Source: Candidatus Micrarchaeia archaeon | GTDB taxonomy: Archaea > Micrarchaeota > Micrarchaeia > Burarchaeales > JACRGF01 | Length of the DNA stretch: 16,556 nucleotides | Direction: 5' to 3' | NCBI GenBank assembly: GCA_038870455.1 | Contig: JAWCPB010000013.1 | Coordinates: 11,607-28,162 of the forward strand | Part shown: positions 2,061 to 3,292 of the stretch, one piece after another | Layout: each line of letters begins with the position of its first letter | How positions within the stretch are numbered: position 1 is the first letter of the stretch | Notes under the pieces: model-generated | The model's input: only the letters and a program-made list of their open reading frames with translations | Told to the model about the DNA's origin: nothing | Databases searched by the model: none | Made by a program: the position numbers and the translations under genes

Positions 2061-2125
2061 GGGCCGTTCATCTCAAGCCTCCTCGCTCGCCTCGACGCTC
2101 TCGCATTCCTGGCGGGCCTCCCTCC

Positions 2126-2151
2126 CAGAAACTTATTTAAAGTCTTTTTCG
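2126..2151. promoter_or_regulatory. Overlapping bidirectional BRE/TATA promoter; plus strand likely drives the ribosomal operon
   Basis: Plus strand reads CAGAAAC-TTATTTAAA and minus strand reads CGAAAAAG-AC-TTTAAATA. This is an AT-rich island in GC-rich flanks. Confidence 0.6.
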
Positions 2152-2164
2152 CCTAATTTCATTC

Positions 2165-2320
2165 GCTTTCGTTGAATGCGCAAAGCATTTTTTGCTTTGG
2201 AAAGAAACTGGATTCGGCTTCCTCTCGAAGCGCGGCCGTTTGCGTACACTCAACGGGAGCAGAAAGCGGCGGGAGCAGGCTTTCACCCTCAGCCCATTCC
2301 ACCGTTTTGAGGCGGCAATC
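2165..2320 (+). ncRNA. Candidate structured 5' leader RNA of the L3/L4 operon
   Basis: Hand-found stems: 2165-2175/2250-2260, 2177-2184/2239-2246, 2181-2187/2193-2199, and a second long hairpin 2263-2308 abutting the SD. Confidence 0.5.
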
Positions 2321-3292
2321 ATGGCAAAGATTCGCTCGCACCGTCACGGCTCGCTGGCCTTCCGGCCGAGGAAAAGGGCAGCGGAGCTCAGCCCGAGGAT
2401 AAAGACGTGGCCGGCCGTGGGCGAGGCCGTGCCGCTCGCGTTCGCAGGCTTCAAGGCCGGCATGACCCGCGTGGCGTTGATTGACGACTCGAATTCCCCT
2501 TCCAAGGGCTTTGAAATCGCCGTGCCCGCCACGGTGGTGGAAACGCCCCCCCTCCTTGTCTACGGCATCCGCGCGTATGTGAGAGCGGCCGACGGGACGA
2601 AACGCGTTCTCTCAGACGGGCTCGTTTCCGACGAAAAGCTCCTCAAGCCGCTGGGTCTCAAGCCGAACAAGGGCATGGAGAAGATAGAAAAGGCCGCTGG
2701 CGAATTGATTGACGTTTCTCTCCTCGCTGCCGTCCAGCCCGGCAAGACCGGCGTGGGGCGGAAGAAGCCCTTTTTCGTCGAGGTGGGCATCGGCGGAACT
2801 CAGGAGGCAAAGCTCGCGCACGCGAAAAGCCTTTTGGGCAAAGAGCTACACGCGAGAGACGTTTTCAAGGAAGGCGAGTTCGTCGACGCCATCGCGGTGT
2901 CGAAGGGAAAGGGCTGGCAGGGTGCTGTCAAGCGCTTCGGCGTGCACCTTCAGAGGAGGAAGGCGACCGGCAGGCGCAGGCACGTTGGAACGCTCGGCCC
3001 GTGGCATCCCGCGAAGGTGATGTACACCGCGCCGCAGGCAGGCCAGACCGGCTTCCACCGCCGCACGCAGCTCAACAACCGCATTCTCAAAATCGGGGAA
3101 AAAGGCGAGGAAATCGTTCCGAATGGAGGTTTTCTCCGCTACGGCGTTGTGAAAAACCCCTATATCCTGCTCAAGGGCTCGTTGATAGGAACCAGGAAGA
3201 GGCTCATTCTCCTCCGCAAGTCCCTCAGGCTGCGGGAAGCGAAAAAGCCTGAAATAAAGTTCGTCTCAACTTCAAGCATGCAGGGTGGATGA
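2321..3292 (+). CDS. rpl3: 50S ribosomal protein uL3
   Basis: HRHGSLAFRPRKRA, FAGFKAGMT, SKGKGWQGAVKRFG, RHVGTLGPWHP, GQTGFHRRT. ATG 2321 follows a GAGGCGG SD. Confidence 0.98.
   Translation: MAKIRSHRHGSLAFRPRKRAAELSPRIKTWPAVGEAVPLAFAGFKAGMTRVALIDDSNSPSKGFEIAVPATVVETPPLLVYGIRAYVRAADGTKRVLSDGLVSDEKLLKPLGLKPNKGMEKIEKAAGELIDVSLLAAVQPGKTGVGRKKPFFVEVGIGGTQEAKLAHAKSLLGKELHARDVFKEGEFVDAIAVSKGKGWQGAVKRFGVHLQRRKATGRRRHVGTLGPWHPAKVMYTAPQAGQTGFHRRTQLNNRILKIGEKGEEIVPNGGFLRYGVVKNPYILLKGSLIGTRKRLILLRKSLRLREAKKPEIKFVSTSSMQGG

Follow-up and report, generated by a model that had tools for sequence, protein, structure and literature searches.

In Escherichia coli, ribosomal protein L4 binds the leader of the S10 operon, the precedent for feedback by L4, and many known ribosomal protein leaders have no obvious rRNA mimic. 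Very few ribosomal protein leaders have been described in archaea. Eckert and Weinberg 2020 list four archaeal leader candidates, one for the rpl3 operon and none from DPANN archaea (PMC7247131). The L4-Archaeoglobi candidate precedes rplC-rplD-rplW-rplB, carries the authors' rating '?' (Eckert and Weinberg 2020, PMC7247131 Table 1) and corresponds to RF03135 (PMC7779021). In its alignment in the supplement of PMC7247131, the helix CUGAN/NUCAG closes the motif; a short bulge follows on the 5' side, then a second, G/C-rich helix (GCGCGU/RCGCGU) with two hairpins inside it and, on the 3' side, an A/C-rich bulge such as CACC. The records in that supplement come from Halobacteria and Archaeoglobi, not from DPANN archaea. 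Our search of openly accessible article texts found no description of an rpl3 leader from Micrarchaeota.

Here, we analyzed a 16,556-nt stretch of DNA (the window; C13:11607-28162) from a Micrarchaeia (DPANN) archaeon with a genome assembly of 1.04 Mb in 51 contigs that is 90% complete. On the plus strand of the window, rpl3 (uL3; 2321..3292, ATG at 2321; Pfam Ribosomal_L3, E 2e-71) heads an operon with the order L3-L4-L23-L2-S19-L22 ... SecY. The Pfam matches and the ORF list place rpl4, rpl23, rpl2, rps19 and rpl22 gap-free behind rpl3 and secY far downstream; Pfam matches were obtained for L4, L23, L2, S19, L22 and SecY. An initial annotation of this DNA had proposed a structured leader RNA upstream of rpl3, and the 5'UTR of the rpl3-rpl4-rpl23-rpl2 operon is indeed structured. 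Like the E. coli S10 leader, the leader studied here stands ahead of an operon that holds L3, L4, L23 and L2; it shows no sequence or model similarity to that leader, as Rfam gave no hit, and the archaeal operon lacks a leading rpsJ. For comparison, every rpl3 locus was retrieved from the 29 genomes of the order in our collection, with the window's genus represented by one genome, G001, whose L3 is 87% identical to that of the window.

The upstream neighbor of rpl3 is a HEAT-repeat gene on the opposite strand that ends at 1869, leaving an intergenic space of 450 nt. The rpl3 promoter (2124..2164, plus strand) consists of a purine-rich BRE-like stretch, a TATA-like TATTTAAA at 2134-2141 and a 23-nt spacer, with a predicted transcription start site (TSS) at ~2162-2166. 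The position of the TATA-like box puts the predicted start at ~2164, one base before the first stem of the leader, and a second promoter-like AT-rich box was not found between 2165 and 2321. Measured from the predicted TSS, the rpl3 5'UTR is ~156 nt long, and the element that we call domain 1 (2165-2260) forms its 5' part on the sense strand. The 5' end of the RNA had been placed at the predicted TSS, and the TATA-like box, 31 nt before the first helix (P1), agrees with this placement, itself a prediction. In one metatranscriptome of the same study, there were next to no words of the stretch 2165-2320 and no matching contig.

Between the HEAT-repeat gene and the promoter lie ~250 nt (1870-2126) with a G+C content of 60-67% and a TATA-like box at 1840-1848. 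This region has a 70-aa ORF without a Pfam hit and gave no Rfam hit. We considered 1870-2130 as a conserved noncoding RNA and rejected it: its conservation across the order was limited to a 23-nt match, and Rfam was negative. In G001 and several f7 and f3 genomes, this position is occupied by a same-strand ORF with a conserved ...KF(K/R)DYF... tail; since a different ORF lies upstream in relatives, synteny breaks exactly at the promoter. A 126-nt intergenic segment (1948-2073) is repeated at 99% identity ~2 kb upstream (G000:C13:11471-11596; L002 1501-1626). The second copy abuts a 10-N scaffold gap with the same 19-mer on both sides, and in the likely source run independent contigs show a branch at 1951 and carry the second context as well. 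Either the repeat is real or the assembly graph is tangled here, and the assembly near the start of the window needs care. Immediately before the rpl3 promoter, ~100-330 nt upstream of rpl3, family f7, including Candidatus Fermentimicrarchaeum limneticum, has a highly conserved G+C-rich stretch of ~150 nt (L015, L019, L020, L022, L023, L025, L046 and L054). The f7 stretch may be an unannotated RNA gene; in L015 and L019 it had no Rfam match at gathering scores.

Every pairing proposed by the initial annotation was found where that annotation had placed it, and the MFE fold of 2165-2324 contains both of its domains. Domain 1 is closed by P1, in which the 5' strand GCUUUCGUUGA (2165..2175) pairs with the 3' strand UCAACGGGAGC (2250..2260) over 11 bp, including two U-G pairs; both strands are paired in the MFE. 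On the 5' side, P1 is followed by the unpaired A2176 and the 5' strand of P2, UGCGCAAA (2177-2184); together (2176..2184) these hold the word AUGC (2176-2179), which we refer to below as part of the core. On the 3' side, the second strand of P2, UUUGCGUA (2239-2246), and the 3' bulge CAC (2247-2249) make up 2239..2249 and hold the core word GUACAC. A2176 opposite CAC 2247-2249 forms an A/C-rich asymmetric internal loop between P1 and P2. P2 opens into a junction that carries two hairpins. The first, P3 (CAAAGCA-UUUUU-UGCUUUG, 2181..2199), is present in the MFE and overlaps the inner 4 bp of a long P2; its loop is a six-T run (2188-2193). A variable linker (2199..2209), mostly unpaired in the MFE apart from 2205-2208, which pair with 2238-2241, leads to P4 (2210..2237), a GC-rich hairpin with the core GCUUC 2217-2221 / GAAGC 2227-2231 and the loop CUCUC.

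Comparison with dinucleotide shuffles (n=200 per test) divided the leader into two parts. Domain 1 folded better than chance (z -2.65; 2 of 200 shuffles as good), while neither the whole stretch 2165-2324 (z -1.33; 19 of 200, not significant) nor domain 2 (2261-2320; z -0.90; 38 of 200) did. The minus strand of domain 1, with z -3.09, folded as well as the plus strand, so that in the window's genome the strand cannot be told from folding energy alone.

Sequence conservation divided the region along similar lines. Identity to G001 was 26% upstream of the promoter (2100-2126), 97% across the promoter (2127-2164), 92.7% in domain 1 (89 of 96 columns) and 71.7%, with two indels, in domain 2 and the Shine-Dalgarno (SD) region (2261-2320). 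The rpl3 coding sequence was 82.6% identical overall and 66.1% identical at third codon positions. At 92.7% against 66.1% for silent sites, domain 1 is under much stronger constraint, and domain 2 lies barely above the silent sites. The differences in domain 1 amount to three substitutions and one 4-nt indel: the linker 2199-2209 has a 4-nt deletion and one substitution (G2204A) in G001, P4 has a single change in its loop (T2225G), and G2257A in the 3' strand of P1 converts the wobble U2168-G2257 to U-A. Because they are confined to a loop, the linker or a U-G to U-A exchange, all of these differences are structure-neutral.

The same design was found in another family. In G006 (locus L008; L3 59% identical), it lies 31 nt downstream of TATTTAAA, the spacing seen in the window, and comprises P1 (ACUUUCCUUUA/UGAGGGAAAAU), P2 (UGCGUGAA/UUUACGUA), a pair of inner hairpins and a CACC bulge. 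Here, the plus strand (-27.2 kcal/mol, z -4.47) was clearly better than the minus strand (-16.9, z -1.51). At the position of P3, L008 reads AAGAA-UUUUC-UUCUU, in which inspection by eye identifies one C-G to A-U double change, so the hairpin at 2181-2199, annotated initially as a competing one, is retained. Its retention defines the common fold as P1, a short P2 and the hairpins P3 and P4. At the position of P4, L008 has GGCGC-ACA-GCGCC. In an alignment of the window, L004 and L008, 98.2% of 56 cells were paired and 4 of 19 pairs were doubly changed. P1 had three of its 11 pairs changed on both sides and three on one side, with 96.9% of cells paired; in P2 all eight pairs were kept, one of them with a double change. 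When the 3' partners were slid by 1-3 columns as a control, 27-52% of cells were paired with 0-1 doubly changed pairs, and 6 of 500 column shuffles reached the observed count of doubly changed pairs. The search for covariation in relatives thus turned up compensatory changes for domain 1, in a small sample.

Searched across 151 genomes of the class, a covariance model of this form of the leader (R2) had hits directly before rpl3 only in G000 (the window's genome), G001 and G006; two further hits, with E about 0.04, lay away from rpl3. The window form is thus known from three sequences in two independent lineages, and its covariation rests on one comparison. In G002, from another genus of the window's own family, both R2 and the locus itself indicated that the window-type leader is absent, with a short, unrelated leader in its place. 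Neither this form nor the second one described below was found at 80 metagenome L3 loci, where the closest L3 was 58% identical, and an L3 search of genome contigs did not find a closer relative than those already compared.

A second leader variant was identified in families f2 and f6. Seven leaders share the arrangement CCyyyyGAG-AA-AUGC-(hairpin)-GCAUAC-CUCrrGGGG-UUCAAAAAA. A model of this variant (R1) had one hit per genome, always before rpl3, in all eight f2 and f6 genomes, one of which was not used in building it, and no hit in the remaining 143 class genomes searched. Across the eight sequences, 86.5% of cells were paired and 3 of 13 pairs were doubly changed. Both forms share a core: between the two strands of a closing helix lie 0-2 A, the word AUGC, 4-64 nt of insert and then G[CU]A[CU]AC. 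The sequence of the closing helix varies by genome (UUGA/UCAA, UUUA/UGAG, UGAG/CUCA, GAGA/UCUC, GAAG/CUUC). A regular-expression scan that required 6 or more pairs in the closing helix found this pattern within 250 nt before rpl3 at 9 of 30 loci, to which L208/G023, scanned apart, is added; L017 was missed through a 2-nt insertion. On both strands of the window's genome (2.08 Mb), the pattern with at least 7 pairs occurred nine times, and the leader was the best of these. When the window-type model was run with filters off on 27.6 kb of second-variant loci, its best hit was the L011 motif, in exactly the register of the shared core (13.4 bits, E 0.16).

The two forms differ in several respects. 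In the second variant, P2 is a simple hairpin rather than a three-way junction, and the motif is followed by the conserved UUCAAAAAA tail; four aligned f6 leaders add an outer 9-bp helix without counterpart in domain 1. R1 gave the window no score, even with filters off, and an attempt at a single model for both variants was abandoned after MAFFT misaligned the 5' strands. We take the two forms, with their common position before rpl3 and common core, as probable variants of a single leader that 11 of the order's 29 genomes carry; this link, drawn from the pattern scan and the one weak model hit, is less secure than the other steps of the argument. The order's L3 tree, made by a quick method, left the families unresolved except for f6 with f7 (SH-aLRT 94), and gain and loss of the core therefore cannot be ordered. 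Among the f6 leaders, L011, L017, L018 and L021 have the motif inside an invariant 9-bp outer helix (GAUGGGUUG/CAACUCAUU). The UUCAAAAAA word after the second-variant motif recalls a T-loop-like word, and GGUUGGGAAACCUC matches the 23S rRNA of G007 at 13 of 14 positions (E 1.1).

The order contains further conserved leader designs. The leader of family f8 (L012, L013, L014, L016, L036, L038) consists of a first hairpin and a second one that reads AUCUGAAGA-CACUAC-(hairpin)-...AUCUUCGGGU, and family f7 (L015, L019-L025) has a short leader in which a GGGG...CCCC hairpin is flanked by GACU and, in the SD region, its pairing partner GGUC; neither design is in Rfam. Most of the leaders in L003-L031 start, ~23 nt downstream of the TATA box, with a pyrimidine-rich word (such as ACUUUCC, ACCUCUUUU, ACUUCUUCG or ACGCUUUUCU; GCUUUCG in the window) that pairs with a purine-rich strand in single-sequence folds. 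Pairing between the 5' end and the SD, seen in single folds of sister families, was not recovered by RNAalifold on four f6 leaders; in f7 it came with one compensatory event and two mismatching sequences, and we do not rely on it.

We compared the leader with described RNA families. Rfam 15 had no match at gathering scores across the 16.5-kb window, and on the plus strand of the leader the sole match at E<=10 was a partial THF-II that is not credible (14.4 bits against a cut-off of 41 bits, E 1.2). At the rpl3 loci of 10 relatives, the leaders were likewise without a match, the sole match being one tRNA. The description of this RNA as a new one therefore held for domain 1. Inspection by eye spoke against other RNA classes as well: the second variant does not keep the ACA of the 3' bulge (it has UAC C), and tandem G-A pairs, as in a K-turn, are missing from the internal loop.

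Domain 1 (2165-2260) is an undescribed leader RNA of a ribosomal protein operon, and as such belongs to a known kind; this assignment is founded on its conservation above the neutral rate, its compensatory changes, its placement only before rpl3 and its absence from Rfam. What it does is less certain. We favor, with a probability of about one half (0.5), the reading that it is a lineage-specific autoregulatory leader and the candidate site for a ribosomal protein of the operon. A promoter-adjacent fold on the sense strand, with a small invariant core inside a covarying helix and found only before rpl3, is typical of a protein-recognition site and favors such a leader; from it we infer that a protein binds, which protein this may be and how it would repress, as follows. 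The 11-bp P1 would begin at the predicted transcription start, and the internal loop would link it to P2. A ribosomal protein of the operon would bind domain 1; candidates are L4, on the bacterial precedent, L3, as the product of the first gene, or any of the twenty-odd others. The bound protein would then feed back on expression of the operon, possibly through entrapment, through effects on mRNA decay or through termination at the T6 run (2188-2193). A conserved terminator-like hairpin with a T-run was not found before rpl3. Occlusion of the SD is unlikely, since the end of P1 lies ~50 nt upstream of an SD that is predicted to be free.

The main alternative, which we consider somewhat unlikely, is that domain 1 is a structure of the 5' end without a ligand, in which a helix starting at the first transcribed base guards the very long polycistronic mRNA from 5'-end-dependent decay or fixes translation efficiency. 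P1 lies at the predicted TSS in both lineages with the same 31-nt spacing from the TATA box, as such a function would lead one to expect. Consistent with it as well, the rpl3 leaders of the order (28 genomes with an upstream region) are mostly long and folding, with structures that differ by family; their length is 60-200 nt at 26 of the 29 loci with a called TATA box and shorter or longer at the other three. Nor did the rRNA of relatives yield a sequence that domain 1 could mimic. The window's genome has no assembled rRNA, and in the 23S and 16S of relatives, searched with patterns, with R1 and R2 and with short-word BLAST, nothing consistent emerged. A regular expression for the core plus P1 had no site common to all three 23S rRNAs, R1 with filters off gave only noise at the three 23S loci (best 9.1 bits), and short-word BLAST returned scattered 8-10-mers. 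The pair AGAAAUGC...GCAUAGCACACGGG, considered as a mimic when met in one 23S, is missing from the other two. The comparison with 23S rRNA suggested in the initial annotation brought up no look-alike in these relatives. However, stability needs pairing alone, and AUGC and GYAYAC are kept across four families while the sequence of P1 varies. That unpaired and loop-flanking bases are kept where the sequence of the helix is free points to sequence-specific recognition.

In the course of these comparisons, we observed that the 16S matches of two relatives (G001:C3:3288-5423 and G007:C125:13968-16045) span 2.1 kb against a model of 1478 positions, indicating large insertions in the 16S of both, and that the 23S is 3.1 kb long in G007 and 2.9 kb in G001.

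A speculative extension, which we think unlikely, is that the core goes back to an ancient site at which archaea bound one of the proteins of the L3-L4-L23-L2 cluster, and that it has its ancestry or ligand in common with L4-Archaeoglobi. Were it true, leader feedback on the rpl3 operon would be a widespread archaeal trait, parallel to bacterial control by L4, and this control would have been kept even in genome-reduced DPANN symbionts and repeatedly remodeled around a small recognition core.

The narrower proposal that domain 1 is itself a far-diverged member of L4-Archaeoglobi, and not an independent invention, is doubtful. Going by PMC7247131, the two are alike in standing directly upstream of the genes for L3, L4, L23 and L2 (rplC, rplD, rplW and rplB) and, by our reading of the alignment, appear alike in the order of their elements, down to a 3' A/C-rich bulge such as CACC. 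Topology alone proves no common descent. By contrast, the best-conserved inner hairpin of L4-Archaeoglobi in that alignment, the first, GGGU(N)...(N)ACCC, is missing from domain 1, which instead has CAAAGCA-UUUUU-UGCUUUG. The RF03135 model had no hit at E<=10 in the window at 1750-2450 or 2155-2270. In the 29 genomes of the order it had none over the gathering cut-off (34.5 bits), and 13 weak hits of which none fell at an rpl3 leader. In the reverse direction, the window-type model was applied to 24 of 80 haloarchaeal loci listed with the motif and had no consistent match, with one 7.7-bit hit spanning the motif. With these searches negative and the conserved hairpin absent, domain 1 resembles L4-Archaeoglobi but is not a detectable member of it.

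It is also very unlikely that domain 1 is functionless, a conserved promoter-proximal stretch that folds by chance. The whole 160-nt stretch folds no better than its shuffles, and few genomes carry the leader, as this explanation would have it. It leaves unexplained a conservation far above the synonymous rate, compensatory changes across families and recurrence only before rpl3.

The initial annotation had proposed a riboregulator of two domains, in which an anti-SD-like loop in domain 2 pairs with the rpl3 SD and thereby switches translation. We find this model highly improbable. Domain 2 (2263..2308, plus strand) is a poorly conserved hairpin with the loop UUCACCCUC, followed by the SD GAGG (2309..2312), which lies 8 nt before the ATG and is complementary to the 3' end of G001 16S rRNA (...CACCUCCU). 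The loop does resemble an anti-SD, as comparison with the G001 16S 3' end (...GAUCACCUCCU) confirmed, and the complementarity between CCUCAG 2287-2292 and UUGAGG 2307-2312 exists. In G001, however, neither is kept: the loop reads CGGGGUC for CACCCUC, which destroys the pairing, CGGG is missing, the UUUU before the SD reads CCUU and the MFE fold of domain 2 differs from that of the window. L008 has an unrelated hairpin at this position, and in the window's predicted ensemble the SD GAGG is mostly unpaired. With the loop lost, the fold changed and the SD predicted to be free, the switch is not supported, and with its two indels, 71.7% identity and a z of -0.90, domain 2 is likewise not supported as part of a riboregulator. 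It is a fast-evolving spacer hairpin before the SD.

Finally, that the conserved AUG at 2176 starts a regulatory uORF or leader peptide is extremely improbable, for although this AUG is invariant in all 11 leader cores and opens a 44-codon ORF in the window (2176-2310), the 4-nt indel shifts the frame in G001, the insert after AUGC varies from 4 to 64 nt and not in multiples of three, no SD precedes AUG 2176 and the AUG is base-paired in P2. We also discarded an in-frame extension of L3 from TTG 2192, whose frame is broken by 4-nt indels in G001. As both frames are disrupted there, domain 1 is not coding.

The leader is kept in genomes of ~1 Mb that have lost much of their regulation, which suggests that these archaea still rely on the RNA level to balance the synthesis of ribosomal proteins. 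Its small invariant core within a freely covarying helix offers a compact candidate for an RNA-protein recognition site. The presence of four or more leader designs within one order indicates that such leaders are replaced fast.
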